The notes under the pieces were generated by a model, which was given only the letters and a program-made list of their open reading frames with translations, had not been told where the DNA came from and made no database searches. Positions 6,977 to 58,059 of a stretch of DNA of 64,000 bases are shown here, one piece after another. Every line of letters starts with the position of its first letter. Position 1 is the stretch's first letter. The stretch is from an uncultured Gammaproteobacteria bacterium (GTDB lineage Bacteria > Patescibacteriota > Patescibacteriia > Magasanikbacterales > UBA922). The stretch spans positions 44,215-108,214 of the forward strand of contig CAYFPM010000001.1 of assembly GCA_964345045.1 (NCBI GenBank), read 5' to 3'. Made by a program: the position numbers and the translations under genes.

Positions 6977-8590
6977 TTGCTTACTCTGCTTACTAACTTA
7001 GTTTATAATTTTATTATGAGACCAAAACCATTAGTACTAGCTATTTGTGATGGTTGGGGGGTAGCACCGGACGCAGATGGCAATGCTATCACTAGGGGTA
7101 AAACTCCTAATTTTGATAAATTCTTAAAAGAGTTTCCAGCTATGACTTTGCTTGCTTCTGGCAATGAAGTCGGGCTTATGTTTGGAGAAATGGGAAATTC
7201 CGAAGTTGGGCATTTGAATATTGGAGCTGGTAGAGTTTATTATCAAACTTTTCCTAGAATAAACAAAAGCATTAGTGACGGAAGTTTCTTTTCTAATGAA
7301 GCTTTGCAAAATGCTATTGGACATGCCAAAGAAAATAAATCAGATCTCCATATTATGGGGTTGGTAAGTCCGGGCAATATTCATGCTAGTCAGGATCACT
7401 GTTATGCCTTGCTGGAACTGGCCAAAAAAGAAAAAGTTAAAAATGTTTATATTCATGTTTTTTTGGATGGACGTGATACTGGCAAAGATACTGCAATTGA
7501 TTTTGTAAATAAATTACAAGCAAAAATGAAAGAGTTGAAAATAGGAGAAATCGCTAGTCTATCCGGCAGGATGTATGCTATGGATAGAGATAATAATTGG
7601 GATAGGATAGAACCAGCCTACAAAGCAATTGTAGAAGGAGTCTCCACCGAATATTTTGCCGATCCTATAGAAGCTATCAATGCTTCTTATGAAAAGCAAG
7701 TTTATGACGAAGAGTTTGTCCCAACAGTAATTGGGAAAGAAGGTAAACCGACTGCCATAGTCAAAGATAATGATGCTGTAGTATTTTTTAATTTTCGTCC
7801 AGATAGAGCGCGTCAATTGACAAAAGCTTTTGTTCTGCCGGGTTTTGATAAATTTGCCAAAAAAGAATTGCAGAATTTGTTTTTTGTGACCATGATAGAA
7901 TACGAAAAAGAATTGCCAGTAGAAGTAGCCTTCCCTCCAATTGTAGTACACAACTGTTTGGCCGAGGTTTTGAGTAAGAATAATTTGAAACAATTACACA
8001 TTGCCGAAACACAAAAATATGCTCATGTTACTTTCTTTTTGAATGGAACATTGGAAGATCCTTTTCCTCTAGAAGATAGAAAATTGATCCCTTCTCTAAA
8101 AGTTAATTCTTTCAAAGAAGCTCCGGAGATGTCTGCAGCTGAGATTACCAAAGAAGTTGTAAAAGCAATAGAATCTGATGTGTATGATGTGATTATTCTA
8201 AATTTTGCTAATTCCGATATGGTAGGACACACTGGAGATTTTGAAGCGGCCAAACAAGGTATAGAGATAATAGACAAAGGTCTTGGAGCTATTGCAGATC
8301 ATGTTCTTGCCAAAGGTGGAATATTTATGATTACAGCGGATCATGGCAATGCCGAAGAAGAGATTAATTTGCAAACTGGGAATATAAACAAAGAACATAC
8401 TACCAATCCGGTACCATTTGTAATTATTGGCGAACAGTATCGTGGTCAAGCTGGGCCAGGTGGAGATGCGCCAAATGGGGATCTAAGCTTGCTGCAACCT
8501 GTGGGCATGCTAGCCGATGTAGCGCCGACTGTATTGTCTGTACTTGGTTTAGAACAGTCACCGGAGATGACAGGGAGAGCACTTATCTAA
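6977..8590 (+). CDS. gpmI: 2,3-bisphosphoglycerate-independent phosphoglycerate mutase (iPGM) paralog 2
   Basis: ICDGWGVA...GNSEVGHLNIGAGRVYYQ...DHGNAEEE; same family as upstream gene but clearly diverged. Confidence 0.85.
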   Translation: MLTLLTNLVYNFIMRPKPLVLAICDGWGVAPDADGNAITRGKTPNFDKFLKEFPAMTLLASGNEVGLMFGEMGNSEVGHLNIGAGRVYYQTFPRINKSISDGSFFSNEALQNAIGHAKENKSDLHIMGLVSPGNIHASQDHCYALLELAKKEKVKNVYIHVFLDGRDTGKDTAIDFVNKLQAKMKELKIGEIASLSGRMYAMDRDNNWDRIEPAYKAIVEGVSTEYFADPIEAINASYEKQVYDEEFVPTVIGKEGKPTAIVKDNDAVVFFNFRPDRARQLTKAFVLPGFDKFAKKELQNLFFVTMIEYEKELPVEVAFPPIVVHNCLAEVLSKNNLKQLHIAETQKYAHVTFFLNGTLEDPFPLEDRKLIPSLKVNSFKEAPEMSAAEITKEVVKAIESDVYDVIILNFANSDMVGHTGDFEAAKQGIEIIDKGLGAIADHVLAKGGIFMITADHGNAEEEINLQTGNINKEHTTNPVPFVIIGEQYRGQAGPGGDAPNGDLSLLQPVGMLADVAPTVLSVLGLEQSPEMTGRALI

Positions 8591-8625
8591 AAAACAAAAA
8601 AGCAAAAAAACATTAAAACAATTTT

Positions 8626-8656
8626 AAAACCGCCAGAGTTGGCGGTTTTTGTTTTT
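8626..8656 (+). terminator. rho-independent terminator
   Basis: aaaaccgcc agagtt ggcggtttttgtttttg hairpin plus T-run after gpmI. Confidence 0.7.
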
Positions 8657-8685
8657 GAAGGAGTGGGGTGTCTGGTTTCGTCTGT

Positions 8686-8802
8686 TTAGAAGAACTTGTC
8701 GATCGCAAGCGCGATGGCGCCGATTAGTGTGCCGAGAGTTCCTCCGATTAGTCGCATGGTAGCTACTTGTTGATACATGGGCATTCTCAAGAATTTTTCC
8801 AT
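8686..8802 (-). CDS. small (38 aa) single-TM membrane peptide, GC-rich
   Basis: MEKFLRMPMYQQVATMRLIGGTLGTLIGAIALAIDKFF; own upstream GC-box/hairpin element; not in ORF track (<60 aa). Confidence 0.4.
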   Translation of the reverse strand: MEKFLRMPMYQQVATMRLIGGTLGTLIGAIALAIDKFF

Positions 8803-10123: not shown

Positions 10124-11269
10124 TTATTGTTTTACTCTTTCCAACAGCATCTTTAGTATTTCTTCTTCAACTTGTTTCAAATTTTTGTTTTTAATTTCAA
10201 AAGAAACCTGATTTTTGTTACCAACAACATTATAACCGGATAATAGTTTTTTTGCATCTAGATTGTTACTATGAACTCTTAGTATACCATGAATAATATT
10301 TTCTACTTTGGAATGTTCGTGAAGTAGTAGAGTTAGTTTGGCTTCTGGAGAATTGCTAATTAATTCGTCGACAATTTCTACCAGATCCCCTTCTTCTGCT
10401 CCACTGCGTACAAAATTATCTCTAGTGATAGTACTATAAACCAAACCAATTTCCGGTTTGGTTTGCATATGGGTTAGCACTTGCCCCCAAAGCTTAAGGG
10501 TAGACACAGAACGAGTACGATAAAGATTGGTAACAATTTTTTCTCTATCTGCCCCTAGGCTCATTAGTTTGCCAGCGGTGGCTAGTGTATGCGGTTTGAT
10601 ATTGTCGGCCTTGAAACTTCTGGTTTTGGCAATCATACCGGTGAGTAGAGCTGTGGCAATATTTTCGTCCAAAAATTCTTCACCTAGTTTTTTCATTAGA
10701 GAAAACAAAATTTCAGCTACAGAAGTTACAGTCAAATCGGTTAAATTTATTTGGCCAAAATGTTCATTGCCAGATTGATGGTCAATATTTACAATTGGGG
10801 TTTTGTAAAATAATTCTGTATTGTTTCCGTAAATCCCAGCAAGAGAGTTTAGATCTTCTGCTCCAAGTACAAAAATTAGATCGTATTTGAAATCACTTTG
10901 GGCAGTGCGAATGTGATCGCGAGTTAGAAAACCAAGTTTTGGAGTTACAAAGATATTAAGCTTTTCATTTTTTACATCGTAGCTTAACTCTTTTACTCCA
11001 GAGTCTTTTATATCAATTGAGATAATCAATTTTTGCAAATTAGTAGCGTTGTTTTTGATTTTATCTGAATTTTTTAAAAATTTGTATGAAGCAGGCAAAC
11101 TAAAATTGTCGCAAACTACATCTACTACTTTGCCTTGCTTTTGCAAAAACAAAGAAAGCGCAATCGAGCTAGCGATTGCGTCTCCGTCTGCAGCTTTGGG
11201 AAAAGTTATTAAAATGTTTTTCTTTTCTTTGGTTAGCTGATTAATTTTTTCAACTTGATTTAAAGCCAT
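10124..11269 (-). CDS. DHH/DHHA1 family phosphoesterase (NrnA-like nanoRNase/pAp phosphatase)
   Basis: DGDAIAS...IDHQSGNEHFG (DHH-type motif) and C-terminal DHHA1-like region; start at internal Met MALNQ. Confidence 0.6.
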   Translation of the reverse strand: MALNQVEKINQLTKEKKNILITFPKAADGDAIASSIALSLFLQKQGKVVDVVCDNFSLPASYKFLKNSDKIKNNATNLQKLIISIDIKDSGVKELSYDVKNEKLNIFVTPKLGFLTRDHIRTAQSDFKYDLIFVLGAEDLNSLAGIYGNNTELFYKTPIVNIDHQSGNEHFGQINLTDLTVTSVAEILFSLMKKLGEEFLDENIATALLTGMIAKTRSFKADNIKPHTLATAGKLMSLGADREKIVTNLYRTRSVSTLKLWGQVLTHMQTKPEIGLVYSTITRDNFVRSGAEEGDLVEIVDELISNSPEAKLTLLLHEHSKVENIIHGILRVHSNNLDAKKLLSGYNVVGNKNQVSFEIKNKNLKQVEEEILKMLLERVKQ

Positions 11270-11474
11270 GATTATAATTTTCAAATTACAAGAAACAAGA
11301 TACAAATTTTGCAAGATTAAGCTAAATATCTTACTTAACACTGTTTTTACAGTAATAGCTGATATTATCAGAGGAAGTGATTTTTGTCAACTAAGTACTG
11401 GGCAGTTTGGGGGTAGCCTCCAAAAAAGAGATCTTATTGATTATTTCGCTAAAATAAGGTATTGTGGGCATATT

Positions 11475-11729
11475 ATGGATATAGAAAAGGAAATAAATAA
11501 AATCCAAGCTAGGAACATTAAAGTTGAGGCAAACAAGGCTTGGGAGACTAGCCAAACCAGAAGATGGTCTATTTTCCTAATAACCTATGTAATTGCTGTA
11601 ATCTGGCTTTATTCCATTGGGGAGTCAGGTTATTTATTAAAAGCTTTTGTGCCTGCATTGGGTTGGTTACTTTCCACTATGACTTTGCCTTTTATTAAGA
11701 ATATTTGGTTAAAAAAGAGAAATAAATAA
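11475..11729 (+). CDS. small 2-TM membrane protein (hypothetical)
   Basis: MDIEKE...WSIFLITYVIAVIWLYSIG...LGWLLSTMTLPFI. Confidence 0.3.
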   Translation: MDIEKEINKIQARNIKVEANKAWETSQTRRWSIFLITYVIAVIWLYSIGESGYLLKAFVPALGWLLSTMTLPFIKNIWLKKRNK

Positions 11730-11731
11730 AT

Positions 11732-14407
11732 ATGAAAGAACTTCCAAAAGCCTACGAACCACAAAAATACGAGGATGGGATTTATAAAAAATGGGAAGAA
11801 TCCGGCTATTTTAATCCGGACGTTTGTATTGAAAAAGGAGTTACAGATAAAGACGCCGAGCCCTTTAGTATTGTGTTACCCCCACCAAACGTAACTGGAA
11901 CTCTACATATTGGCCACGCGGTCATGCTTGCGATCGAAGATGTCATGGTGCGCTATCACCGCATGAAAGGTGATAAGACTCTGTGGGTACCAGGGACTGA
12001 CCATGCCGCTATTGCTACCCAAGAAAAAGTAGAGAGATTACTATGGGATACCGAGAAAAAGACTAGGCATGATCTAGGTCGCGAAGAATTTCTAAAGCGC
12101 GTAGATCAATTTGCCAAAGACAGTCACGACACCATTGTAAACCAAGCCAAGAAAATGGGAACAAGTCTCGACTGGTCACGTGAATACTATTCGCTAGATG
12201 AAAATTTGAACATTGCTGTTCGTACTGCTTTTACCACCATGTACGAAGAAGGTCTTATTTATCGTGGTGACAGAATTGTAAACTGGGATCCAAAGATGCA
12301 GTCGAATGTGTCGGATATAGAGGTAGATAGAAAAGAACAAAAAACCAGATTTTATTATTTCAAATATGGTCCGTTTGAGATTGGCACTGCCAGACCAGAA
12401 ACCAAGTTTGGGGACAAATATGTAGTCATGCATCCAGATGATAAACGTTACAAGGATTATAAACACGGGGACACATTTGAGTGCGAATGGATCAACGGCA
12501 AAATTACCGCCACCATTATAAAAGACGAAGCCGTTGACCCAGAATTTGGAACAGGGGTAATGACCATTACTCCGTGGCACGACGCCACTGACTTTGCGAT
12601 TGCCGAGCGTCACAATCTCGACAAAGAACAGATTATCGACAAAGACGGCAAGCTCATGCCGGTGGCTGGTGAATTTGCTGGCATGGATATTTTTGAAGCC
12701 AGACCAAAGATTGTCGAGAAGCTAAAAGAAAAAGGTCTGCTGACCAAAGTAGACGAAGATTATGTACACCAGATTGCAACTAACAGTCGTGGTGGTGGGG
12801 TGATCGAGCCGCAGATTATGAAGCAGTGGTGGATGGATGTGAATAAAAAGTTCAAAGCGAAAAGCGGGAAGCTAACAGGGATAAAAGAAGGGCAAGAGAT
12901 AACACTTCAGGAAGTGATGCAACAAGTAGTGAAGTCTGGTCAGATCGAAATTCTACCAGAAAACTTTAAGAAAATTTATTTTCATTGGATAGATAATCTG
13001 CAAGATTGGTGCTTATCGCGCCAGCTTTGGTTTGGGCATAGGGTGCCAGCTTGGTATCGTGATGACGAAGTGTATGTAGGAGTGGACGCTCCAGAGGGTG
13101 AGGGTTGGGAGCAAGATCCAGACACACTTGATACTTGGTTTTCTGCTGGGTTATTTACTTTCTCTCCACTAGGGTGGCCAAACGAGACTGATGATTCCAA
13201 AATTTACCATCCTACAAGTGTCCTCGAAACTGGTTACGACACTCTTTTCTTCTGGGTGGCCAGAATGATTCTTATGAGTACCTATCATTTGGGTGACATT
13301 CCATTTAAGACCGTTTACTTGCATGGTTTGGTACGAGATGAAAAGGGTAGGAAGATGAGTAAGTCGCTTGATAATATTATCAATCCGCTTGATGTGTGTG
13401 AGAAGTATGGGACAGATGCTGTGCGACTTTCACTTATGATTGGTTCGACCCCAGGGAATGACACCAAACTTTCGGAAGAGAAGATCGCCAGTTTTCGTAA
13501 TTTTGCCAATAAGCTTTGGAATATATCTCGTTTCATGTTGATGCAAATTGACAATGAACAAATAACAATGAACAATGAGCAAACTCTAGAAGCGAGAACG
13601 TTGTCAGATTTGTGGATTTTGAAAAAAATGGAAAGTGTGGTTGCTATTATTTCTGGAGATCTCGAAAATTATCAATTCTCTCAAGCCGGTGAAACGCTTC
13701 GTGATTTTACATGGAACGAATTGGCTGACTGGTATTTGGAAATTGTTAAAATCGAGGGTGGTAAGTCTGAGATTTTGAATTATGTTTTGAACACTATTTT
13801 GAAACTTTGGCATCCATACATGCCGTTTGTAACAGAAGCTATCTGGAAAGAAGTTTATGGTGAGGATCAAATGTTGATGGTCGAATCTTGGCCAAAAAAT
13901 ACAGATGGTGTAGAGCAAGGTTACAAAAAAGGTGTGTCTACATTTGTAGAATTTGGGATTATTCAGGAGATTATTGTCGGAATTCGTTCCCTGCGAGCAG
14001 ATTTAAATATTGAACCTGGTAAAAAGATCAATATTAGAGTGAGTGCAGGGGATAAAGTTGATTTATTAAATGAGAATGTTGAGGTTATAAAGGGGTTGGC
14101 ACGACTTGAAAAGATTGAGATTGAAACTAAGATTGAGAAAAAAGATGGAGAGGTGGGTTTTGTATCTGGTGGTATAGAAGTATTTGTAAATTTGTCTGGA
14201 GCAGTGGACATAGAAAAAGAAAAATCTAGAATCGAAAAAGAAATTGCCAAGGTAGAGCCATATGTAAGTAGCCTTGAGAAAAAACTTTCGAACAAAGGCT
14301 TTACAGATAATGCTCCAGAAGAGATACTAGCAGGTGAGAAGAAAAAATTGGAAGAGGCGAAAGAGAAGTTGGAGAAATTGCAAGAGCAGTTAACCAATCT
14401 AAATTAG
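11732..14407 (+). CDS. valS: valyl-tRNA synthetase
   Basis: PPPNVTGTLHIGHA (HIGH), KMSKS, C-terminal coiled coil. Confidence 0.92.
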   Translation: MKELPKAYEPQKYEDGIYKKWEESGYFNPDVCIEKGVTDKDAEPFSIVLPPPNVTGTLHIGHAVMLAIEDVMVRYHRMKGDKTLWVPGTDHAAIATQEKVERLLWDTEKKTRHDLGREEFLKRVDQFAKDSHDTIVNQAKKMGTSLDWSREYYSLDENLNIAVRTAFTTMYEEGLIYRGDRIVNWDPKMQSNVSDIEVDRKEQKTRFYYFKYGPFEIGTARPETKFGDKYVVMHPDDKRYKDYKHGDTFECEWINGKITATIIKDEAVDPEFGTGVMTITPWHDATDFAIAERHNLDKEQIIDKDGKLMPVAGEFAGMDIFEARPKIVEKLKEKGLLTKVDEDYVHQIATNSRGGGVIEPQIMKQWWMDVNKKFKAKSGKLTGIKEGQEITLQEVMQQVVKSGQIEILPENFKKIYFHWIDNLQDWCLSRQLWFGHRVPAWYRDDEVYVGVDAPEGEGWEQDPDTLDTWFSAGLFTFSPLGWPNETDDSKIYHPTSVLETGYDTLFFWVARMILMSTYHLGDIPFKTVYLHGLVRDEKGRKMSKSLDNIINPLDVCEKYGTDAVRLSLMIGSTPGNDTKLSEEKIASFRNFANKLWNISRFMLMQIDNEQITMNNEQTLEARTLSDLWILKKMESVVAIISGDLENYQFSQAGETLRDFTWNELADWYLEIVKIEGGKSEILNYVLNTILKLWHPYMPFVTEAIWKEVYGEDQMLMVESWPKNTDGVEQGYKKGVSTFVEFGIIQEIIVGIRSLRADLNIEPGKKINIRVSAGDKVDLLNENVEVIKGLARLEKIEIETKIEKKDGEVGFVSGGIEVFVNLSGAVDIEKEKSRIEKEIAKVEPYVSSLEKKLSNKGFTDNAPEEILAGEKKKLEEAKEKLEKLQEQLTNLN

Positions 14408-18221: not shown

Positions 18222-19361
18222 ATGCAACAGAGAGCATCACCGGCAACTACTGCCGTCAACGCGGTGAACGCGACGTCTCGAAGAAAGCCTCGTCGTCCTA
18301 CGTGGCGGCGGATCATGCTTCAGCTAACGAAGCCACTTCGTCAGCTTTTCACTCTCGTGTTGGTATTCGCCTGGAAACTATACCAAGGAGTTTGGGGGCA
18401 TCGAAAGAGGATCCCCTTCGTCTTCTTCGTGTACGGCACCGAGCGTGACAAGCGGGCCTACTTCCCTGCTTGGGCCGAGGAGATCCTTCCGGATGTCTTC
18501 CCCATTGCACTCATGAAGTTTCGTGGTCGCAGTGGCCGCGTGATGGCCACCTTCAATGACGTCAACAAACTGCGCGAATCTCCCGCTTTGGCGGTTGGCC
18601 TTTTGGGCTATTACCGCAAGCTGTTCCCCAATTCGGGACCGGTGGCCTTGGCTGGGCAGCTGCCTAGCTTGGTACACAAAGCTGGCGGCAAACTAAAGCA
18701 GCCGTTTGTCCAAGGCACCCGTGGCACCCGTTTTGCCCTCATCGAAGGCTCCCGAGCCTTGGCCAGAGAGTATGGGAGCGATCCAAAGAATCTGACCATC
18801 GCTGTTCTTGGGGGCGCTGGCTATACCGGCCGGTTCGTGGTGTTCGACTTGTCGAACATTTTTGGGCGGGTTGTTGCCTACGACCCTCGGTACACCAAAG
18901 GCCCTACCAACAGCGTGCCGGATACCCCGATCAACATTGCTTTCACCGCAGATCCCTCCGAGTTGGGAAGAGCCGATGTGGTGATCGTCCTCACAGCTAG
19001 TGGAGACGACATTGACGGTGTGGTTGATAACTTGCGTCGAGGAGCAATCCTTGGCGACGACACCCATCCCTGCATGGGTGAAATCGTGCGTGGGCATCTG
19101 GAAGATGCTGGGGTCAAGTATCTCAAGCTTACGACTTCGACTGGTGGTAAAGTACGGATCTTACCGCGTCTCCCCAACTTCCGGGGTGATGACGTTCCGG
19201 GTTGCTTGATCGAAGCCTTGGTGGTAGCAGAGGGACACGAAGTATCTGCGTGTCCCAAAGAACCAAATCCTGGTGATTACGATAGGCAGCACGCCTTCAA
19301 CGAAGCGGCGCGCGAACTTGGTTTCCAAGCCAGGCTGGCCGAGCATACCGGTGATTCATGA
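18222..19361 (+). CDS. Rossmann-fold NAD(P)-binding oxidoreductase-like protein on a high-GC island (family not resolved)
   Basis: IAVLGGAGYTGRFVV glycine-rich dinucleotide-binding motif; GC content far above flanks. Confidence 0.35.
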   Translation: MQQRASPATTAVNAVNATSRRKPRRPTWRRIMLQLTKPLRQLFTLVLVFAWKLYQGVWGHRKRIPFVFFVYGTERDKRAYFPAWAEEILPDVFPIALMKFRGRSGRVMATFNDVNKLRESPALAVGLLGYYRKLFPNSGPVALAGQLPSLVHKAGGKLKQPFVQGTRGTRFALIEGSRALAREYGSDPKNLTIAVLGGAGYTGRFVVFDLSNIFGRVVAYDPRYTKGPTNSVPDTPINIAFTADPSELGRADVVIVLTASGDDIDGVVDNLRRGAILGDDTHPCMGEIVRGHLEDAGVKYLKLTTSTGGKVRILPRLPNFRGDDVPGCLIEALVVAEGHEVSACPKEPNPGDYDRQHAFNEAARELGFQARLAEHTGDS

Positions 19362-21668: not shown

Positions 21669-21829
21669 AGTGAGGCTTACATAGCTATAGAGGCTTACAC
21701 AGCTTATGGGCAAACTAACCTCTTAAGCTTTGTAAGCTTTTTATGCATTGTAAGCCTTTATTGTTTATGTACGTTTATTTGTACGATAAATTTTTGGAGC
21801 AAAAAAAGTACGATACTTTGATAAAGTCT

Positions 21830-22534
21830 ATGGAAACCCGGTTGACTGATTTTGGGATAGCTGGTAAGATATTGCGACTTCGAAATTTTAGCAACCCTAA
21901 ATCAATAATAGAAGAAGAAATCAAAAAAGGTGCTACAGCCATAATTTTGGTAGGGGACGACAATACTTTTGGAAGAATTCTTTCTAGAGCGGCTACTTGT
22001 CAAACTTTGTTTGGTTTTTTGCCGGTAGGACCAAACAATACTATCTGTGATGTGTTGGGGATCCCGGTTGGGGTAGAAGCTTGCGAAGTTTTGTCTAGAA
22101 GAAGAAAAGTAAAATTGGATATTGGTTGGATAAGCAATCGAAATAGATATTTTATTTCTCAACTTCATATTCCCTCTAGTCCGATTACCATAGAATACGA
22201 CGAAAAATTTAAAGTTTCGGGTAGAAATAAAAAAATGGAATTGGTGGTTTGTAATTTGCAACCGTTTGTTTGGAAGGATACTCGAAAGAGTAAATTTGTT
22301 GTTCACCCGCAAGATGGCAAACTAGAAGCTTTTTTGCGACCAGTAGCTGGCAAAGGAATTATAAAGGAAAAATTCGAAGAACCAAGTGTTTTCCCTTTTC
22401 AAGAAATGATTATAAGTAGTCCAACTCCATTTGTAGTAAAGGCAGACGGGGACACTAGCAAAGAGACAAAGATTGTAATAAAATTGGCTAGAAAAAGAAT
22501 AGAGATGATTGTAGGGAAAGATAGAAGTTTTTAA
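21830..22534 (+). CDS. diacylglycerol kinase catalytic-domain (YegS/BmrU-like) lipid kinase; ORF opens at 21743
   Basis: ILVGDDNTFGR (GGDGT-like) motif. Confidence 0.5.
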   Translation: METRLTDFGIAGKILRLRNFSNPKSIIEEEIKKGATAIILVGDDNTFGRILSRAATCQTLFGFLPVGPNNTICDVLGIPVGVEACEVLSRRRKVKLDIGWISNRNRYFISQLHIPSSPITIEYDEKFKVSGRNKKMELVVCNLQPFVWKDTRKSKFVVHPQDGKLEAFLRPVAGKGIIKEKFEEPSVFPFQEMIISSPTPFVVKADGDTSKETKIVIKLARKRIEMIVGKDRSF

Positions 22535-22540
22535 AATAAT

Positions 22541-22626
22541 GCTCAGGTGGCGGAATTGGTAGACGCGCTAGCTTGAGGGGCTAGTCGAGGCTTTTCTCGG
22601 TGGAGGTTCAAATCCTCTCCTGAGCA
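22541..22626 (+). tRNA. tRNA-Leu (anticodon GAG), long variable arm
   Basis: acceptor GCTCAGG/CCTGAGC, D-loop AATTGGTAGA, anticodon loop TTGAGGG, T-loop GGTTCAAATCC. Confidence 0.85.
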
Positions 22627-22633
22627 CAAAAGG

Positions 22634-22657
22634 AAACGCCGATAGGCGTTTTTTTTG
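22634..22657 (+). terminator. intrinsic terminator after tRNA-Leu
   Basis: aaacgccgataggcgtttttttt. Confidence 0.7.
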
Positions 22658-22766
22658 TGTAAAGGGAGGAAGCAGAACCTGGGGGTGGTAGGGGGAGGAA
22701 CCCCCTACATACTGTGGAGAGATGGAGAACTGGAAAGTTCTCCAGGAGCGCGAAGACGCGACGTGA

Positions 22767-22785
22767 AAATCCTCTCCTGAGCACA
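22767..22785 (+). repeat. 19-bp direct repeat of the tRNA-Leu 3-prime end (att-like)
   Basis: aaatcctctcctgagcaca identical to 22610-22628; lies between tRNA and GC-rich island. Confidence 0.7.
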
Positions 22786-23415
22786 ATTGGTCAAACAAAA
22801 AAATTCGACTTAATTAGTCGAATTTTTTGTTGTCTTGTTTTTTGTGATAAGCCGAATTTTGTACTCAGGCAAGCTGAGTGATGATCATTTCTCTAGCCAG
22901 TACATTGCTGTACTGATCATAACGAGCTAACTTATCACCAATGCGAAGCATTGGCGCTGCTCTTTCTCTAGGTAGGGTTTACCACGCTCTGGTGTCACCA
23001 CCAGAGGAGTATAGTAGCTTTTGCCAATTGAACAAAAACTTCCATACACTTTTCACCTTTCACCGACGCTCCGCATCGGAAGCTCCAATAATCAAGTTTC
23101 AAGAGACAAATTTGTAACTTGAAATTTTTGATTTGGAATTTCCAATGCGAAGCATTGGTTAGTATAGTCTCTGCGGCACTATCCCGCTCTATACCTCGCA
23201 GCATAGAGGGTGGGTGTTACCCACTACCAGGACCGACGCTCCGCGTCGGAAGCATTGGTCAGAGTTCGGACTTTCCTCTCCGACGTGACGTCGGAGCGAT
23301 CACCTACAAAGAACAAGACCAAGAAAATATAGCATAAAAATGGCGGATTGTCAAGGTAAATGAGTTGTTTTTTGGCTAAATTATAAGGGGGAAGTCTTCT
23401 AAAGGATAGGGGGTC

Positions 23416-23444
23416 TTGACAATGCAACTCATTTGCATTAGGGT
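23416..23444 (+). promoter_or_regulatory. sigma70-like promoter TTGACA-17-TAGGGT, leaderless GTG start at 23451
   Basis: cttgaca atgcaactcatttgcat tagggt ggaatc GTG. Confidence 0.45.
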
Positions 23445-23450
23445 GGAATC

Positions 23451-24326
23451 GTGAGACATCATAAATTGTTTGTCCCAATCTGTGTTCTTTTCTTTGGGAT
23501 GTGCCAGGTATCTCCTGTAGAAGCCTGCATGTACCATGGATCTGCAACCGATCACAAAGAAAAAGACGAATTGACTCTTTTGCTATCCGGGATCCTAGAA
23601 TGGCATGGCGATGTGAGTGCCGGAGCTCCTCATGCCGAAGATATCCCCGATGGTGACAAGCTTGTCTTGACGGTTGATCGAGATTTTCGTCTCTACGGGG
23701 GGGCTGTTGTAGGAAGTTGCTACCAGAGATTTTGTGCTTTTGGTCAATTCTCTCTGGGACTGGGTATCCCAAACCAACATGTGGGATTCCATTTTGCCTA
23801 CCAAATAGGCCTAACACTTCGAGCCTCTATCACTCCGGAGCTGGCGTTTTTTGTTTGGGGTCTGCTAGAGTCCCCTCACCCTGCCGAAGAAGAGGAAGAC
23901 CCTCAAACCGAAGTTGAAGTTGACGAGTCTGGAACTACTGTGACAGTCGAAATCTCTAACCCAAGTCAATCAGACAAACAAGGCAATTCTCCTGCGGGGC
24001 TGCTTGTCACTGGCATTATGGGTGAGAACTTTGGCGTGGGGGTTGGTATTTTTGGATCAGATCTTGGAGCAGGACCGGCTATTATGCTTGCTGGACGAAT
24101 AGGCTTTTTTACAGCCCACATCAGCGTAGCCGCAAATGACAAGTTTGCACGAGGAGATTTTGGGGTAGGTTTTACATCTGCATTTCTTGAAGGAGATCAC
24201 GACGAACATAAGCATACGGAACCCGAAAGTAGGTGCGAACTAAGCGAGGGGGATTGCGAGCTTTGTGGTGGACACTGGCACGAAGCTTCCAAAGGGACAG
24301 GATCCTGCCATATAGGAGAGCATTAA
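23451..24326 (+). CDS. secreted hypothetical protein with C-terminal Cys/His-rich metal-binding-like tail (GC-rich island)
   Basis: signal peptide LFVPICVLFFGMCQVSPVEA; C-terminus CELSEGDCELCGGHWHEASKGTGSCHIGEH. Confidence 0.45.
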   Translation: MRHHKLFVPICVLFFGMCQVSPVEACMYHGSATDHKEKDELTLLLSGILEWHGDVSAGAPHAEDIPDGDKLVLTVDRDFRLYGGAVVGSCYQRFCAFGQFSLGLGIPNQHVGFHFAYQIGLTLRASITPELAFFVWGLLESPHPAEEEEDPQTEVEVDESGTTVTVEISNPSQSDKQGNSPAGLLVTGIMGENFGVGVGIFGSDLGAGPAIMLAGRIGFFTAHISVAANDKFARGDFGVGFTSAFLEGDHDEHKHTEPESRCELSEGDCELCGGHWHEASKGTGSCHIGEH

Positions 24327-24551
24327 CAGTAAGATTTTCTTACTTGAGTAGGGTGTTGCGAGTGCAATGCCCTACCAAATAATCAATCTATTTTTTATAT
24401 AATTATAGAGTGTGTAGCTCTGTTTTTTATTATATTTGTTTTTGATAATTTTAGTTTTAGGCGTTGAATTAAGCGTTATTTTGGAATAATAGTCCCACGT
24501 CAAAGGATTGACTAAACGCCTTTTTTTGGCTATATTATAACTAATATTCCT

Positions 24552-25970
24552 ATGAAAAGATCAGAATTAATTATCATGATGTTGCAAGTCCCTTTGGACT
24601 TTTTGCTTTTGATACTCTCTGGAGTTTCGGCTTATTACTTGCGTTATACAAACTGGGCAATTGCGCTAAAACCGGTTCTTTTTGATATTTCAGTAACTAA
24701 TTTTATAGAAATTATCATGCCAGTAGCAGTAGTTTGGTTGGTAGTTTTTGCTTTGGCCGGGCTTTATTCGGTAGATCCAAATCGTAAACTTATGAATACT
24801 ATAGGCCGAGTATTTTTGGCTTGTTCGGCTGGTCTTTCTGTAGTAGCTCTTTATATCATGTTTACACAACAATTATTTGATTCTAGATTTTTGGCTGCAG
24901 GAACTTGGGCTTTTTCTTTACTTTACATTACTTTAGGCAGATTAATTATAAGAGGTATAAAAGCGATTTTGTATCGCAAAGGGATTGGTTCTAGGGGAGT
25001 GGCTATTATTGGCCACCATGGAGCTGCCGAAGAAATTATAAAAACATTAAAGCAAAGAAAAGAATTAGGCTATATAGTAATTGGCCAATATGTACATTTT
25101 GACAAAAATACTAAAAAAGATTTAAAAAAGAAAAAACCCGATGAAATTATTTTTACCAATCCTAGAGCTCACGAGGACGAAACTTTGGAAGCAATTGAAT
25201 TTTGCAATGATAATCATATAACTTTCAAATATTCTGCCGATCTTTTTGATACTTTTTCTACCAATATGACAGTTCACCCACTTGCCGGAATTCCTGTGGT
25301 AGAATTGAAACGGACACCTCTAGAAGGTTGGGGAAGAATAATAAAGAGGATATTCGATATCATAGCGAGCACGTTTATGATAATTATTTTTAGTCCAATT
25401 ATGCTTTTGGTAGGGATTGGAATTTTGGTAGAAACTGGTTCCCCTGTAATTTACAAAAATAAAAGAGTTGGTATTCGAGGTAACAAATTTTTTGCTTGGA
25501 AGTTTCGTTCTATGTACAAAAAAGATTGTACAGGTGAACAATTTGGCGAAAGAGGAGTTCACGCTGAAAAGAGAGAAAAAGAACTTATAAAAAAACAAAG
25601 CGTGCGAGTTGGACCAATTTATAAGATCAAAGACGATCCAAGAGTTACCAAATTTGGTAAATTTTTGCGTCGTAGTAGTTTGGACGAATTGCCGCAATTT
25701 TTTAATGTTCTTTTTGGTTCTATGAGTATAGTAGGGCCTAGACCACACCAACCGAGAGAAGTAGAACAATACGAAAAAGATCACAAACATGTCTTAACAA
25801 TCAAACCGGGTATTACTGGTCTTGCCCAAATTTCCGGTAGGAGTGATTTGTCTTTTGACGAAGAAATAAGATTGGATGTGTTTTATATAGAAAAATGGAG
25901 CTTACTGTTGGATATAATCATTTTCCTAAAAACACCTTTTATATTATTTAGAAAACGTAAAGCCTTATAA
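24552..25970 (+). CDS. undecaprenyl-phosphate sugar phosphotransferase (bacterial sugar transferase, WbaP/CpsE-like)
   Basis: multi-TM N-terminus, KRIFDIIAS...PVIYKNKRVG..KFFAWKFRSM..VGPRP. Confidence 0.85.
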   Translation: MKRSELIIMMLQVPLDFLLLILSGVSAYYLRYTNWAIALKPVLFDISVTNFIEIIMPVAVVWLVVFALAGLYSVDPNRKLMNTIGRVFLACSAGLSVVALYIMFTQQLFDSRFLAAGTWAFSLLYITLGRLIIRGIKAILYRKGIGSRGVAIIGHHGAAEEIIKTLKQRKELGYIVIGQYVHFDKNTKKDLKKKKPDEIIFTNPRAHEDETLEAIEFCNDNHITFKYSADLFDTFSTNMTVHPLAGIPVVELKRTPLEGWGRIIKRIFDIIASTFMIIIFSPIMLLVGIGILVETGSPVIYKNKRVGIRGNKFFAWKFRSMYKKDCTGEQFGERGVHAEKREKELIKKQSVRVGPIYKIKDDPRVTKFGKFLRRSSLDELPQFFNVLFGSMSIVGPRPHQPREVEQYEKDHKHVLTIKPGITGLAQISGRSDLSFDEEIRLDVFYIEKWSLLLDIIIFLKTPFILFRKRKAL

Positions 25971-35065: not shown

Positions 35066-35175
35066 ATCTTGCCGTTTCGTTTTGTTGTGCGAAACGGCTC
35101 TCCTTGGTTGGGTGATGAATGAGTCTCTGCGGGTAAAAAACTTGATTTTGCTACGACAGTAGAGTCAGACAAAAT

Positions 35176-37761
35176 CTAGATTAGTTTTTTTGATCTGAGT
35201 TTTTGTAGCCGGTCTCTCGCGAGTTTGCCATCCCTGGCCAGTTTACGCTGTCGGGATAGCCAGCTTGTTGAACCGTTGTCTAGTTTCCCACTAGATTCTA
35301 GGCCAGTAAGCAATTCTTGGTATCTTTGATCCCAGCTCTTTTTGGTTTTGCCCCAATCGAACTTTAGGAGATCAAGTTTGCGTACTCGTTCCTTAGAAAG
35401 TTTCCCTTTTCTTCTTCTTACTCTTTGTTGGGCTACCCATGTCGCAAGAGTTTGGTCTTCGTAGAACCTAGTAACCTTGCTGTGACCGTTAGCCTTGAAG
35501 AATGCTGAAAGGATATCGTATGATTCTTCCCAGCTCCTTTTGTCTCGGTACTTCCAACGCAGGCCAATATCGCACAAAGCAACATAGCGTTCGCGAGGTA
35601 GAAGACCTCTAGTGTGACGATCTCTTTGGTAGTTGATCCATCTGCTCAGAGAGTAATTGTCAGGATCCCCAAAGGGGACGTTGCAATCCCCATATTGCTC
35701 CTTGTAGGCGAGCAATTGACCAAACATTTCATCCCAGCTCGAGGTCAACTTGTCTACGCATCGTGTTGTGATCGCGTTACGCAGCAACTCGAGGTCGATC
35801 CCATCAGCTCCAATCACGTCGACTATATCCGCATCGTTGACGTGGTCTTTGCCTTGGTCTCCATTGCTCCCACGTTCACCTCGCTCCTGGCGGAGTCTAG
35901 TGATTTTGTGGGCCATGGCCTCGTCTTGCTCGCGCATGGCGTTGAGCACAGCCCAAACCTCGCGGAAGTCTGCACGCTGCACAGCGTCCTCGATGGATTC
36001 GTCCTCGTGTTGTTCCACATATAGCGGCACAAGAATATAGCCCTTTTTCTTGCCGTTGGCTCGGCGCATGGCTCGGCCAGTAGCTTGGACAATGTCGATG
36101 AGACTACGCTTTTTGGTGAAAAACGCGACCAAATCGACCGTAGGTACGTCCACACCCTCGGTGAGACATCGGGCGTTCGAGATTACTGCTCGCGCAGAAT
36201 GTCGGAAGCCTTGCATCTCTTCTTCGCGCACTGCTGTCGACATATCGCCGTTGACATTGTGGACTGTGAAGTCGCTGGGGATATGGGGAGCCACCGAACG
36301 TGGTCCATCACCAGTGAAAGCCTGGGCATCGACGACGTTGGCATGGAAGGAAAACACTTTGCCTACGCCGTGGCGCTCGATTGCCTTGGCTAGTGAGATC
36401 CAGTTGGCCGCCTCACGCGCCTTGACTCGTACCCCGTCACCCATGTCTACGAAGCCCTTCTCGATATTATCAAGCATCCCGCTTGTCACCACCGACACAA
36501 CGACTTCGTAGTCGCAGATAATGCCTTCGGCAACTGCATCTCGGAAATTCATCTGGTACGCGGTCGGTCCGTAGATTTCTTCATCGTCCATCGAATAGAC
36601 GAGTCTAGCTTCATCATCGTCCTTCTTACTGTCGGGTATATCCCAATGTCTGGGGGTTGCCGTCCAGAAAGTTCGAATGATGATTGGTAGATTCTCGTCT
36701 TCGAGCGCGAATGCGAATTGCCCGCCCTTCTGGGTAGCTGTCTTGTGTGCTTCGTCAAAAACGCCGAGTTCAAAGACGTGCTTCCCACCCATCCCCTCGG
36801 CCACAATCGGTGCCGAGTGGTAGGTGGTGAAAATAATCTTAACCCCATGAGTCTGTGATGCAAGGAATGCAGAAACCGCTGCTGCCTCGTTGGTTACAGG
36901 GAAATCGAGTTCGGTTTGTCCGATCTCGAATTCATGGACACCTTCTGCAACAGTTCGATCCGAACACACGCATAGGAAACTAGGTCGCTGCCAGCTGGTA
37001 TGCTGGAGCCACTCGTGCAGAGTTTGGCGAACTAGTGCAAGTGACGGCACGAGAACTAGGATGCTCTCGACGCCGAGTTGCTCGGCTACAAAAAGCTGAG
37101 TGGAAGTTTTGCCCGTGCCACAGGGCATGATGATTTTCATCCGAGGTTTGTTTTGTGTCACCACCAGGTCACACACATTGTCGCAGGCTTCTTGCTGGCG
37201 TGGCATTGGCTTACGGAGGGTCTTGGCAACTTTGGGTTGCTTTCCGGCAATCCAAGCTCCAATCGCTCGGAGGTTGTCCCGCGTCAGGCGGCTCAGATCT
37301 TTGCCCGAGACTACGTAGATCGATTTAGCTAATCCGTCGATCTCTTCTGGGATCATTTCGACGTTGGTGAAAAGTACATGCGTGCTTCCCCCTCCAACTG
37401 AGAAGAACGGGGTGAGCGCTTCGACGTCTATCTCTTCAGTCTTGTCGCAGAACAACGAATGGTAAACTTGGAGCTCGCCAGTCGCAGTTTCGATGACCCC
37501 ATCGATCAGGTGCGAGTGTAGCCGGAATGTAGCAAAGCCTCGAGGTGCCTGCGTCTCAACCGACCATACCCTCTTGGCTTGTGCCACGGGCATGACAGTG
37601 AGATAGGCTTGCGCGAAGACCATGAAGGCTTCCATGCGCTCTTCTGGATTTTTGAGTCGCGCGATTTTTCGTTCGATCTGCCGGAAGGTGTTGGCGTTTT
37701 CGTAGATACCCATGCGGTTGAAGGTTGCTGCCTTCGGATGTCTGATTGTCTTCAAAGCCAC
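35176..37761 (-). CDS. superfamily-2 DEAD/DEAH-box helicase with C-terminal helicase-associated (HA) domain repeats; GTG start; high-GC island
   Basis: MPCGTGKT Walker A, FDEAHK motif II, QATGRAMR motif VI; repeated W..F..L..Y....G..NVP / L..W...QR C-terminal modules. Confidence 0.7.
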   Translation of the reverse strand: MALKTIRHPKAATFNRMGIYENANTFRQIERKIARLKNPEERMEAFMVFAQAYLTVMPVAQAKRVWSVETQAPRGFATFRLHSHLIDGVIETATGELQVYHSLFCDKTEEIDVEALTPFFSVGGGSTHVLFTNVEMIPEEIDGLAKSIYVVSGKDLSRLTRDNLRAIGAWIAGKQPKVAKTLRKPMPRQQEACDNVCDLVVTQNKPRMKIIMPCGTGKTSTQLFVAEQLGVESILVLVPSLALVRQTLHEWLQHTSWQRPSFLCVCSDRTVAEGVHEFEIGQTELDFPVTNEAAAVSAFLASQTHGVKIIFTTYHSAPIVAEGMGGKHVFELGVFDEAHKTATQKGGQFAFALEDENLPIIIRTFWTATPRHWDIPDSKKDDDEARLVYSMDDEEIYGPTAYQMNFRDAVAEGIICDYEVVVSVVTSGMLDNIEKGFVDMGDGVRVKAREAANWISLAKAIERHGVGKVFSFHANVVDAQAFTGDGPRSVAPHIPSDFTVHNVNGDMSTAVREEEMQGFRHSARAVISNARCLTEGVDVPTVDLVAFFTKKRSLIDIVQATGRAMRRANGKKKGYILVPLYVEQHEDESIEDAVQRADFREVWAVLNAMREQDEAMAHKITRLRQERGERGSNGDQGKDHVNDADIVDVIGADGIDLELLRNAITTRCVDKLTSSWDEMFGQLLAYKEQYGDCNVPFGDPDNYSLSRWINYQRDRHTRGLLPRERYVALCDIGLRWKYRDKRSWEESYDILSAFFKANGHSKVTRFYEDQTLATWVAQQRVRRRKGKLSKERVRKLDLLKFDWGKTKKSWDQRYQELLTGLESSGKLDNGSTSWLSRQRKLARDGKLARDRLQKLRSKKLI

Positions 37762-37845: not shown

Positions 37846-38070
37846 TAAAGAACATCAAATGGCCACAAATTTGAATTTGTGGAACAATCTAAATTAGCTT
37901 ATTTTAGCGAATTTGTCAAGGTTTTTTATTAATTTTGTTTAAGCAAAAAAAAACGCTTAAATAAAGCGTTTTTTTATTTGTGCTTCCGGAGGGAATCCCA
38001 GCCTTCGGCTGATGACCCGTAGGGTCAGAACCCACATGGATGGTTCTCTCGATGAATGATTTTCTGTTTG

Positions 38071-56167: not shown

Positions 56168-57772
56168 GTGAGGTTTGTCGTGAAAGTTTTGAGAGAAGTA
56201 GCAAGTGATATTGGTGGGCTCGTTTCGGTGGTGAACCGTGATACGGTTCGCCAATTCGCGCCGAACGATGGCGGCAATGTGTCGCCTATCGCCATGGAGT
56301 GGAGTTCCTTCTTGAGAGGGACGAGTGCCGACCAGGACTTGATCAAGCTGTGTAAACGTAACCAGGTGTGGCAAGTCATCGTGGTCACGCTCCCCGTGAA
56401 TACCTCCTACCTCGAGTTGGTTCGGGGGAGCGAGTTCGAGGGGGCTGACGTCGAGGAAATCTCCAATATGAATGGTGGGTTTGTCCACTACGTCCTGGTT
56501 CGGGCCAACGAGGGGCCGGCCGGCCCCATGAGCGTGGCAATCGGGGGCGATTGCCTGCGCCCAGAGGCCACCTTGACCGAGGTGTTCGAGAGAGCCTCGC
56601 TCTTGGCCACGGCCATGAGAGCAAAGGCCAGGTCGTTTTTGCCCAGTATGCCCGGCTTCCACGCCGGCAAAAAGGGAGCCCTACTCCTCGTCGACCGAGA
56701 TGGCGAGCGCGTGGTGCTGAGCAATCCCTCGGCCATGGCACTCTCGGCACCGGCCATGGTGCTTGGAGTGGGGTTTGCCAACCGACTACGCGTAGAGAGC
56801 TGTGCTGCTTGGGCTAGCCGCTATCGACTACCGCTCGGGGTTTTGTCTCCGGATTCTCTCTCCCCGGACGTGGTTACGGGAGGAGGGTGGACTCGGCTTG
56901 CCCAGGCATTCCGCTACTACGGGCTTGACTCTCGTATGGCCACCTGCCAGCCGGGCAAGACGCCGAATCCCTCGTCGGTGCCCACTGGCCAAGGTGTAGC
57001 CACGGCTGCTCTAGAAGTGGCCAAGTGGCTGCGGGAGTCGGGTAGAGTCCCGCAGGGCGAGCCGATTCGGGTGCTTGTCGAGGCTGCTGGCGCAGTGACG
57101 CAGGGCATGTTCCCACTGCTGCTAGAAGAAGGATTGGTGAAACCCGAGTACCTCACCTTCTACGACCCTAGCAGAGAGGCGATCGCCGTGATCGAGGCTC
57201 TGGTACCCGGCTGCCAAACGCTCTGTCGTTCGAACGATGTGGCACTCAGCAAGTTGGCCAACAAGACCTTCGATATCTTGATCAACAATGGCCTGGGCAA
57301 CCACTTGGGTACGCCAAAGCATATGGAGCACTTGGGAAGGATGGTTAGGTCTGGAGGACAGTTGGTGGTCTTGGGTGGAGCCAACAACATCATCAAGTGG
57401 GACAACCCGGCACTCAACTTGCCTCTCGTCATGGCTGAACGAGGAATTCAGGTGATCCCCGATACGGCTGTGTCGGGCGGTGGTTGGACCTTGGCCTTGG
57501 CTGGCCAAGCTGCCGAAGTGGCCGGGGTTGACCCGAGCAAATTGGCCAACCCGGTCAGTTCGTTTGTGTGTCGCTCGGTCTCGAGGAGAATTCAATCTGC
57601 CCTTGTCGCCTTCGGCGAGGGTGGTGGCGACCACCTCTGGAAGATCGTCTCGGAGCAGATGGAAGAGGCCGCTCCGTCGCTCGACCTGGTTCTCCCCGAG
57701 GACGAGTGGGCGGCGGCTGTCGATCCGAGAGACTTCCTGCGAGCGATAGGTGTGTCGCTCCAGGGCGAGTAG
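56168..57772 (+). CDS. Glu/Leu/Phe/Val-dehydrogenase-family (amino-acid dehydrogenase-like) protein, highly divergent; alternative GTG start 56180
   Basis: VVLGGANNIIKWDNPALNLPLVMAERGIQVIPDTAVSGGGWTL aligns with family block EGANGPTT..A..IL.ERGI.V.PDILANAGGVTVS; canonical GxGxxG replaced (VEAAGAV). Confidence 0.45.
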   Translation: MRFVVKVLREVASDIGGLVSVVNRDTVRQFAPNDGGNVSPIAMEWSSFLRGTSADQDLIKLCKRNQVWQVIVVTLPVNTSYLELVRGSEFEGADVEEISNMNGGFVHYVLVRANEGPAGPMSVAIGGDCLRPEATLTEVFERASLLATAMRAKARSFLPSMPGFHAGKKGALLLVDRDGERVVLSNPSAMALSAPAMVLGVGFANRLRVESCAAWASRYRLPLGVLSPDSLSPDVVTGGGWTRLAQAFRYYGLDSRMATCQPGKTPNPSSVPTGQGVATAALEVAKWLRESGRVPQGEPIRVLVEAAGAVTQGMFPLLLEEGLVKPEYLTFYDPSREAIAVIEALVPGCQTLCRSNDVALSKLANKTFDILINNGLGNHLGTPKHMEHLGRMVRSGGQLVVLGGANNIIKWDNPALNLPLVMAERGIQVIPDTAVSGGGWTLALAGQAAEVAGVDPSKLANPVSSFVCRSVSRRIQSALVAFGEGGGDHLWKIVSEQMEEAAPSLDLVLPEDEWAAAVDPRDFLRAIGVSLQGE

Positions 57773-57899
57773 AGCGACTGCCTGGCTCCGGCCCCTAGTC
57801 TCTTTTTAGGCCAGGCGCGACACCAATTTTTGTTCTTTTTTGTTGCGGCGAGCCTAGATTTTACCTTTGGTATATCTGGGCTCGTTGCACACACTCATC

Positions 57900-58059
57900 T
57901 TGACAAGAAGCAGAGATTTGTGTATATTAGTTTTAATCTTATGAAAACAAATATCCACAACTTCTTTTTCTTTTCTTTCTTTATCCCGCCAAAGAGTCGT
58001 GGTGTTTTGAGTTAATGCAAATTAAAATCAAGATTACCCCGACTCGTCGGGGTTTTTTG
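57900..58059 (+). promoter_or_regulatory. Phe-rich leader-peptide attenuator: promoter TTGACA-17-TATATT, near-leaderless ORF MKTNIHNFFFFSFFIPPKSRGVLS (57941-58015), intrinsic terminator 58036-58059
   Basis: 6 Phe codons in a 7-codon run (TTC TTT TTC TTT TCT TTC TTT); alternative pairing gagtcg(57998)/cgactc(58042) could act as antiterminator. Confidence 0.6.

Follow-up and report, generated by a model that had tools for sequence, protein, structure and literature searches.

A probable insertion scar in a tRNA-Leu(GAG) gene of a Candidatus Magasanikbacteria genome, next to the gene for RNase P RNA and an independently inserted orphan gene

Described cis-mobilisable elements (CIMEs) are kilobases long and derived from known integrative and conjugative elements (ICEs). 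Williams (in 2002) reportedly counted the T-loop among the recognised sublocations of integration in tRNA genes. Where an element has integrated, a fragment of a tRNA 3' end on one side of it is a common, even the usual, signature of the attachment site (att) known as attR (PMC9897764). Here we describe such a fragment downstream of a tRNA-Leu(GAG) gene in a 64-kb stretch of DNA (64,000 nucleotides, hereafter the window), where it is followed by the gene for RNase P RNA (rnpB) and by an orphan open reading frame (ORF). We consider it likely that the locus is made up of three separate things: a scar left by an insertion into tRNA-Leu, rnpB itself and an independently inserted orphan gene.

The window has a G+C content of about 35%, and nearly all of its genes lie on the plus strand. 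A diacylglycerol kinase (DAGK)-like protein is encoded at 21743-22534, and its closest relatives (57-73% amino acid identity) come from metagenome-assembled genomes of Candidatus Magasanikbacteria, a group of the Patescibacteria or candidate phyla radiation (CPR). The source is a low-GC genome of this group. The tRNA-Leu(GAG) gene begins 6 nt past the stop codon of the DAGK-like gene. In the following, A denotes the repeat copy within the tRNA gene, A' the downstream copy and B the spacer at 22658-22766 or its counterpart in relatives. The features around the tRNA are:

22541..22626 (end 22626/7), plus strand: intact tRNA-Leu(GAG) gene (ARAGORN; Rfam RF00005, 55.2 bits)
22610..22629, plus strand: repeat copy A, attL-like, which completes the tRNA (20/20 repeat)
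22634..22657, plus strand: terminator-like hairpin AAACGCC-GATA-GGCGTTT with a T-run, directly 3' of the tRNA and part of the insert
22658..22766, plus strand: GC-rich spacer B with three hairpins, the rest of the insert (fold z = -3.9 on the plus and -4.9 on the minus strand)
22767..22786, plus strand: repeat copy A', an attR-like, displaced tRNA 3'-end fragment that joins the ancestral downstream flank
22798..22828, no strand assigned: bidirectional intrinsic terminator with a 13-bp perfect stem (terminator scan; inverted repeat)

A preliminary description of this region had named a tRNA-Leu followed by a 19-bp duplication of its own 3' end. Both were recovered: the gene is called by ARAGORN as well as Rfam, and the 19-mer AAATCCTCTCCTGAGCACA is present exactly at 22610-22628 and 22767-22785. 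The true identity is one base longer, with the 20-bp repeat AAATCCTCTCCTGAGCACAA at 22610-22629 and 22767-22786 (20/20). Copy A starts at nt 4 of the T-loop and spans the last 4 nt of the loop, the 3' strand of the T-stem, the 3' strand of the acceptor, the discriminator A and 3 extra nt. When compared with a profile hidden Markov model (HMM) of tRNA-Leu, the match of A' is confined to model positions 68-85. A search for a distant third att copy, which had been suggested as a check, yielded no further 19-mer in the 64 kb with up to 3 mismatches allowed. A chance origin of the repeat was rejected, as 0.01 such repeats are expected and two matches occurred in none of 100 shuffles. A weaker likeness reaches 7 nt further to the left (24/27 overall), where GAGGTTC in the tRNA faces GACGTGA in front of A'. 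This GACGTGA partly resembles the 5' strand of the T-stem plus the start of the T-loop, and the core arm of an attP site could look so.

For comparison, a set of ~55 related loci (labelled L0xx) was assembled. The gene order ArgRS ... histidine kinase, bactofilin, DAGK-like protein, tRNA-Leu(GAG), a variable segment, rnpB, sugar transferase and glycosyltransferase (GT1) is kept in many of them, and a tRNA-Leu gene is found at the matching position in ~47. Sites lacking the insertion, the comparison proposed in the preliminary description, were found in L002, L005, L028 and L037. In these, 33-35 bp separate the tRNA-Leu gene from the 3' end of a convergent rnpB gene. A single bidirectional terminator of the form AAAAAA-hairpin-TTTTTT stands in between, and TTGTCTT..ATAAGCCGAAT comes after it. 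In the window, this layout comes after A' and not after the tRNA, and the window therefore has 157 extra bp. The terminator at 22798-22828 is thus the counterpart of the one in the relatives; its arrangement recurs in L002, L005, L028, L037, L001 and L042, and it is common to the ancestral tRNA-Leu gene and the convergent rnpB. The hairpin at 22634-22657, which the terminator scan lists on the minus strand, is missing from the relatives with empty sites.

Within the same species, an empty site was sought, and only the contigs of an identical strain (L056-L058, 99.9-100% identity, project PRJEB17505) exist, each of which carries the insertion. L057, which represents the same strain in another run, differs from the window by two bases at 520-530, each of which falls in the functional copy of the tRNA. 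A T in the T-loop is replaced by C, and another T by A, which disrupts an acceptor pair; the downstream fragment is as in the window. These differences could be assembly errors or population variants. Four other contigs (L029, L035, L015 and L048) terminate within or right at the tRNA-Leu gene; assemblies break in this manner where strains diverge downstream.

The DNA between the two repeats comprises only 137 bp, namely the terminator and ~110 bp with three hairpins (TAGGGGG-AGGAA-CCCCCTA, TGGAGAACT-GGAA-AGTTCTCCA and CGCG-AAGA-CGCG), and contains no ORF of its own. No Rfam family was found in B, with the E-value mode of Rfam giving noise only, and nothing similar to B was detected elsewhere in the window or in the related loci, nor among viral contigs and phage records. 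A repeat of the 3' segment of a tRNA, an insertion relative to relatives and a start at one of the canonical sublocations (anticodon loop, T-loop or 3' end), here the T-loop, are among the features of integration scars in tRNA genes, and all three were observed. The arrangement supports an attL/attR topology, in which A would be the incoming copy with a new terminator and A' the displaced original 3' end. The integration scar proposed in the preliminary description thus holds as regards the insertion topology and the distal copy on the ancestral flank. Its placement of an island beyond the second repeat is unsupported, because an integrated element sits between its att copies, which here enclose 137 bp without an ORF.

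According to the explanation that we favour, a 157-bp piece of DNA (22610-22766, equivalently 22630-22786) would have entered the tRNA-Leu(GAG) gene at the T-loop. It would have brought its own tRNA segment from T-loop to 3' end, an intrinsic terminator and ~110 bp of hairpin-rich sequence. The incoming copy would now complete the functional tRNA (attL-like), while the original 3' end, A', would have been shifted 157 bp downstream, still next to the ancestral terminator and the convergent rnpB (attR-like). The most likely mechanism appears to be Campbell-type site-specific recombination between the tRNA-like attP of a circular element and the T-loop of the tRNA gene. The body of the element may later have been lost; alternatively, a minimal cassette may have been moved in by an enzyme whose gene lies elsewhere. 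The scar is probably without function today, and the only change that it is likely to have brought is that transcription of tRNA-Leu stops at its own terminator and not at one shared with rnpB.

Downstream of A', the preliminary description had reported a jump in G+C content and a dense set of GC hairpins, and had suggested that the DNA from the second repeat to ~24400 may be a single decayed island at tRNA-Leu. The rise in G+C was confirmed by measurement, with values of 0.50-0.52 at 22600-22800 and 0.40-0.60 up to 24300, compared to ~0.35 for native genes. The hairpins turned out to be helices of an RNase P RNA encoded on the minus strand:

22832..23315, minus strand: rnpB, bacterial class A RNase P RNA, full length with insertions (Rfam RF00010)
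23354-23326, minus strand: promoter-like TTGACA-17-TATATT, TG-extended (consensus scan), just upstream of the rnpB 5' end

The match to RF00010 covers model positions 1-367 with 142.8 bits (gathering score 100) and E = 6.7e-44. It is a full-length match above the curated threshold, to which the window gene adds length (484 nt compared to 367 model positions); the gene is also ~70-90 nt longer than rnpB of the relatives. The conserved P4 strands GAGGAAAGUCCG and ACAAAAUUCGGCUUAU were seen in the alignment, and a long AT-rich hairpin insertion falls, as far as the alignment can be read, in the P12 region. Two stable hairpins, CCAAUGC-UUCG-GCAUUGG and ACCGACGCUCCGC(A/G)UCGGAAGC, each occur twice. 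The minus-strand site at 23354-23326 is the only strong sigma-70-like promoter in the spacer and fits rnpB, and the relatives hold a homologous TTGACA/TATAT(T) block. In ~25 related loci, too, rnpB is located close to tRNA-Leu and the sugar-transferase gene; both orientations occur. This synteny identifies it as core DNA rather than as part of an island, and its G+C content corresponds to that of structured RNAs in genomes rich in A+T.

Beyond rnpB lies the ORF that had been described as a part of the island. The corresponding features are:

23368..23386, plus strand: left copy of the 19-bp direct repeat TTTTTTGGCTAAATTATAA (18/19, spacing 1154 bp)
23451..24326, plus strand: orphan ORF with GTG start, 291 aa (ORF calling)
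24522..24540, plus strand: right copy of the 19-bp direct repeat, inside the sugar-transferase promoter

A Cys/His-tailed ORF with a GTG start had been reported here. The 291-codon ORF does exist, but the public gene call begins at Met27 (265 aa) and not at the GTG. The TTGACA promoter assigned to it was not recovered, since the plus-strand TTGACA at 23416-23421 has a poor -10 element (TAGGGT) behind it and was not reported by the consensus scan. In the translation, the N-terminus resembles a signal peptide, the C-terminus is rich in Cys and His, and there are hydrophobic stretches rich in Gly; the product is probably exported. No Pfam family was found in it, and the ORF is absent from every related locus. 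Only the self-match was obtained in a word-indexed search of 5.8 billion sequences and in an exhaustive HMMER search of 1.84 billion representatives. The G+C contents at the three codon positions (GC1/2/3) are 0.63/0.43/0.39. With this coding-like order of GC1>GC2>GC3, the ORF looks like a real coding sequence. Its raised G+C content is mainly due to first codon positions, that is, to amino acid composition rather than to a high-GC donor; other high-GC patches of the window have GC3 values of 0.57-0.71.

The two 19-bp copies have the consensus TTTTTTGGCTA(A/T)ATTATAA. The right copy overlaps the promoter of the sugar-transferase gene (TTGACT-17-TATATT, 24508-24536; gene at 24552-25970, Pfam Bac_transf), which is homologous to the promoter of the relatives. 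Excision of 1154 bp would leave an intergenic region of 82 nt, close to the shortest regions of the relatives (87-97 nt in L005, L002 and L037; others have 114-189 nt). Because the orphan ORF has its own repeat and lies on the far side of rnpB, it is a second, independent insertion and not cargo of the tRNA scar; in this second event, 1154 bp carrying the orphan gene would have entered the promoter region between rnpB and the sugar-transferase gene.

A single decayed island reaching to ~24400 is therefore extremely unlikely. The raised G+C content over 22600-24300 and the strain-specific ORF would suit it, but 484 bp of this DNA are rnpB, a core gene in conserved synteny, and the ORF cassette has boundaries of its own, formed by the 19-bp repeat, beyond rnpB. 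In addition, no further copy of the tRNA repeat with up to 3 mismatches exists outside the pair, within the 64 kb, that could bound such an island. A genomic island at 22786-24400 was rejected, as this interval includes the syntenic rnpB and is not bounded by the tRNA repeat; only the 1154-bp cassette is strain-specific, and the GC3 of its ORF reaches just 0.39.

Repeats of a tRNA-Leu 3' end were also found downstream of tRNA-Leu in relatives of the source organism:

L001 (= L031, L032): 17-bp repeat of its own tRNA-Leu 3' end
L013: 21-bp repeat of its own tRNA-Leu 3' end
L042: 23-bp repeat of its own tRNA-Leu 3' end
L025: 33-bp repeat of its own tRNA-Leu 3' end

Each downstream fragment exactly matches the 3' end of the tRNA-Leu gene of its own genome, though such ends differ among genomes. 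Compared to a profile of 35 tRNA-Leu genes, the downstream copies of the window, L001, L013, L042 and L025 match only from model position 66-68, in the T-loop, to position 85, and all five therefore have a common boundary. The genomes with an insertion (window, L001, L013/L042 and L025) are scattered over a neighbour-joining tree built from the DAGK-like protein, and L028, which has an empty site, falls in the clade of the window. We infer at least four independent insertion events.

These recurrences raise the possibility that the small insertion is itself mobile, as a miniature, ORF-less cassette with att sites only and a recombinase or nuclease encoded elsewhere, comparable to a miniature inverted-repeat transposable element (MITE) or a CIME. 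We regard this as unlikely. In its favour, at least four independent lineages have insertions of only ~80-180 bp at one T-loop boundary, and in none of them is there a repeat-flanked element that bears genes. The spacers B of L013, L042 and L025 are homologous (shared motif AGGACGAGAA.GCCGGA..GATGTC; nhmmer E = 8.6e-34, with a model that includes the tRNA part) even though their hosts are distant in the tree, but the spacers of the window and of L001 are related neither to this family nor to each other, and no second copy of any B was found elsewhere in the partial genomes searched. A 167-bp insertion is present in L025 but missing from the closely related L023, which fits both this reading and the favoured one; the difference could equally be a deletion between the 33-bp repeats of L025. 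Other small selfish insertions at the same tRNA point in the direction of mobility. In L020, a GIY-YIG gene is accompanied by a second copy of a 5' piece of the tRNA, and both L025 and L023 have an apparent insertion of ~118 bp (seen by eye only) in which short inverted repeats enclose a whole tRNA-Leu. A candidate enzyme was not found.

Taken to the level of the group, mobility would mean a family of gene-less cassettes of ~80-180 bp in Magasanikbacteria that repeatedly enters the T-loop of tRNA-Leu(GAG), each member with a replacement 3' end and mostly a terminator, which we hold to be improbable to the same degree. The mover would then be a recombinase or nuclease encoded elsewhere or an undescribed mechanism that duplicates ~17-33 bp, a proposal that is no less doubtful. 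The 19-bp repeat of the orphan cassette could be a product of the same mechanism as the miniature cassettes.

Further observations touch the loci just named. The tandem duplication of tRNA-Leu in L001 (9513-9835; also in L031 and L032) is recent and includes an anticodon change, so that GAG and CAG copies are present, with the 17-bp 3'-end fragment between them. In L020 (10837-11230), the gene inserted at tRNA-Leu encodes a GIY-YIG protein of 79 aa (Pfam E = 1e-14). The first 24 nt of the tRNA are duplicated upstream of it, followed by a 19-nt palindrome, CTGCCTGCCGGCAGGCAGG, and by ~8 more tRNA-like bases; the palindrome was found again in noncoding DNA past tRNA-Leu in L034 (5172-5191). Short inverted repeats (CCCTGTATA ... 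TGTACAGGG) enclose a complete tRNA-Leu(GAG) in L025 (8598-8800) and in L023 (3876-4154). Its neighbours are a weak tRNA-like 5' fragment to one side and a copy of tRNA-Leu minus its first 23 nt to the other. In L023, an 85-nt GC-rich insertion replaces the anticodon loop of the partial copy. An ORF just upstream in L025 (8176-8565) shows a likeness, by eye only, to a four-helix-bundle ('23S rRNA intervening-sequence') protein.

L003 harbours an orphan ORF of its own between tRNA-Leu and rnpB (11253-12164, 303 aa, GC 0.56), which has no Pfam family and has its own promoter. At the right end of this 1.4-kb insertion (12306-12417), a tRNA-5'-like stretch, GGACGAG..., and a degenerate ...GTCAGCAC stand just before the bidirectional terminator. 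Nothing convincing was found when direct repeats around the L003 insertion were sought. The GGACGAG(AA) motif also opens the right arms of the spacers in L001, L013, L042 and L025.

Several results weigh against an integrated element as the source of the scar at the window's tRNA-Leu. No integrase or recombinase was detected with Pfam in 18 ORFs of the window, in line with the preliminary description, nor in 10 ORFs downstream of tRNA-Leu in related loci, the search being limited to those ORFs; it returned only an HTH_17 protein in L019 and the GIY-YIG protein in L020. Between the repeats a recombinase is lacking because 137 bp are too short for one. Neither an intact element nor a repeat-flanked one with genes was found at the site in ~50 related loci, and no virus or phage bearing the attP was found by exact-pattern and protein-anchored scans of viral contigs or by blastn against phage records, B and the repeat both being sought. 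All independent cases are small (~80-180 bp), which is not expected from random decay of kilobase-sized elements. The relatives with empty sites belong to other species, with a neighbouring protein that is only 57-73% identical. Finally, the orphan cassette also has a ~19-bp repeat but no tRNA, and so a mechanism that is not tRNA-specific and duplicates ~20 bp could be acting. With no integrase, no element with genes and only small scars, a mobile cassette was kept as an alternative to the remnant of a larger element.

The repeat might also have arisen in the absence of any site-specific recombinase. Either tRNA-Leu was duplicated in tandem and one copy decayed, with its 3' end kept or gene-converted, or foreign DNA entered by an illegitimate or microhomology-mediated event in which ~20 bp were duplicated. 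We judge this to be rather unlikely. Duplications do occur at tRNA-Leu: the tandem tRNA-Leu(GAG) and tRNA-Leu(CAG) genes of L001 share identical blocks of 28 and 23 bp, and in L025 and L023 a partial tRNA-Leu copy lies 11 bp past the full gene. In the spacers themselves, the B of L013/L042 holds ACCTTGAGGTGG..GGTCGC, corresponding to the anticodon arm of another tRNA-Leu type (p ~0.005), and the B of the window resembles that type with p = 0.008, both values being uncorrected for 25 comparisons; compared to its own tRNA, however, window B gives p = 0.59, and the tRNA-Leu profile finds nothing tRNA-like upstream of the T-loop in any B. A simple tandem duplication also disagrees with the sequence that follows A, a new terminator unlike the DNA after A' or upstream of the tRNA. 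Neutral decay is at odds with the abrupt change from no similarity to full identity over 17-33 bp at one T-loop position in five genomes. The 19-bp direct repeat of the orphan cassette, which involves no tRNA, and a 16-bp repeat (14/16) around a helicase island beside tRNA-Arg also speak for an origin without such a recombinase. The notion that B is a decayed full tRNA-Leu or pseudogene was rejected: the profile HMM sees positions 68-85 only, and local alignments with p values of 0.004-0.008 in 25 tests are too weak.

It is very unlikely that B and A' together form a functional RNA or regulatory element, such as a tRNA-like or minihelix RNA or an antisense to the tRNA-Leu 3' end on rnpB read-through transcripts, with function keeping the copy identical. 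The identity of A' to the tRNA of its own genome in every case agrees with such a role, but the element is missing from most relatives and its adjacency to rnpB is not kept in L013 or L025. The spacers fold better than shuffled controls (z -2.7 to -5.5), and in the window, L001 and L013 pairing is possible between a purine-rich stretch of B and the T-stem/acceptor part of A'; still, the five B+A' sequences yielded no consensus structure (RNAalifold -2.7 kcal/mol, with a positive covariation term), and neither an Rfam family nor a promoter-like site before B was found. A hammerhead-like core noticed by eye in the B of L001 was rejected, as two invariant core positions differ.

Returning to insertion by recombination at the T-loop, which we prefer, other parts of the window and of the comparison set provide material on insertions in general. 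A gene for a helicase of 861 aa (ResIII/Helicase_C plus two HA domains; 35176-37761, minus strand, GC 0.52, GC3 0.57) lies just downstream of tRNA-Arg(TCG). It is bracketed by the 16-bp repeat mentioned above, at 35114-35129 and 38051-38066, with the second copy 4 nt from the tRNA-Arg 3' end. In appearance, this region comes closer to a classical island beside a tRNA than the tRNA-Leu locus. Degenerate tRNA-like fragments follow tRNA-Lys(CTT) and tRNA-Arg(TCG) at 38305-38240 and 38046-37981 on the minus strand, and the one after tRNA-Arg has an apparent 30-nt insertion of two hairpins exactly in the T-loop (by eye). Rfam called neither fragment a tRNA.

Two further high-GC patches of the window are probably foreign DNA. 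The patch at 18222-19361 encodes a 379-aa ORF without a Pfam family; among the related loci, only L014 has a homologue of it, in the same place. The block at 56168-62617 (~6.5 kb) contains a 534-aa ORF without a Pfam family and three paralogous genes of the GCS2 family (PF04107) with GC3 values of 0.60-0.71. A search for direct repeats flanking the patches at 18-19.4 kb and 56-62.7 kb gave nothing convincing. In L027, which belongs to the Patescibacteria, partial copies of tRNA-Ala are piled up around tRNA-Ala(CGC) (8250-8800, minus strand), and a 13-bp repeat of the tRNA-Arg 3' end lies 176 bp downstream of that gene (18846-19100). Scars made of tRNA fragments may be common in CPR genomes.

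Taken together, the neighbourhood of tRNA-Leu(GAG) and rnpB is a recurrent hot spot of insertion in Magasanikbacteria, in which few mobile elements have been described. The annotation is to be corrected in one respect: a GC-rich, hairpin-dense stretch beside a tRNA in a low-GC CPR genome is here the gene of the RNase P ribozyme and not foreign DNA. If the small inserts were indeed mobile, they would be among the smallest known cassettes of site-specific insertion and would help in the study of gene flow among CPR bacteria. For now, the scar is of a normal kind and of modest interest.

The closest described systems are the phages, ICEs and islands that tyrosine integrases place in tRNA genes. 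In common with these, the window shows a direct repeat of the tRNA 3' segment that starts in the T-loop, one copy within an intact tRNA and the other a dead fragment on the ancestral flank, and inserted DNA that is missing in relatives and brings a terminator for the tRNA. It differs in that the insert comprises 137 bp only, without integrase, cargo or recognisable body, in that the miniature pattern is repeated in several lineages, and in that neither an intact element nor a donor of the attP was detected. Like CIMEs and other non-autonomous elements with att sites at their ends, the insert is ORF-less DNA between repeats of a recombination site and would need an enzyme encoded elsewhere, but it differs from the kilobase-long, ICE-derived CIMEs described. 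MITEs are a conceptual analogue, but they have terminal inverted repeats and short target duplications of fixed length, neither of which the insert shows. A MITE or insertion sequence (IS) element was accordingly rejected, given that no inverted repeat exists around 22630-22766 and that the direct repeats of the different genomes range from 17 to 33 bp. Free-standing homing-endonuclease cassettes are represented by L020, in which the GIY-YIG gene sits between the intact tRNA-Leu gene and a second copy of its 5' part, and the same tRNA is therefore struck by selfish insertions that restore the gene; the insert in the window differs in that it has no endonuclease gene and duplicates the 3' and not the 5' end. 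Compared to these systems, the scar is of a known kind, and only its small size and its recurrence across a CPR lineage are unusual.

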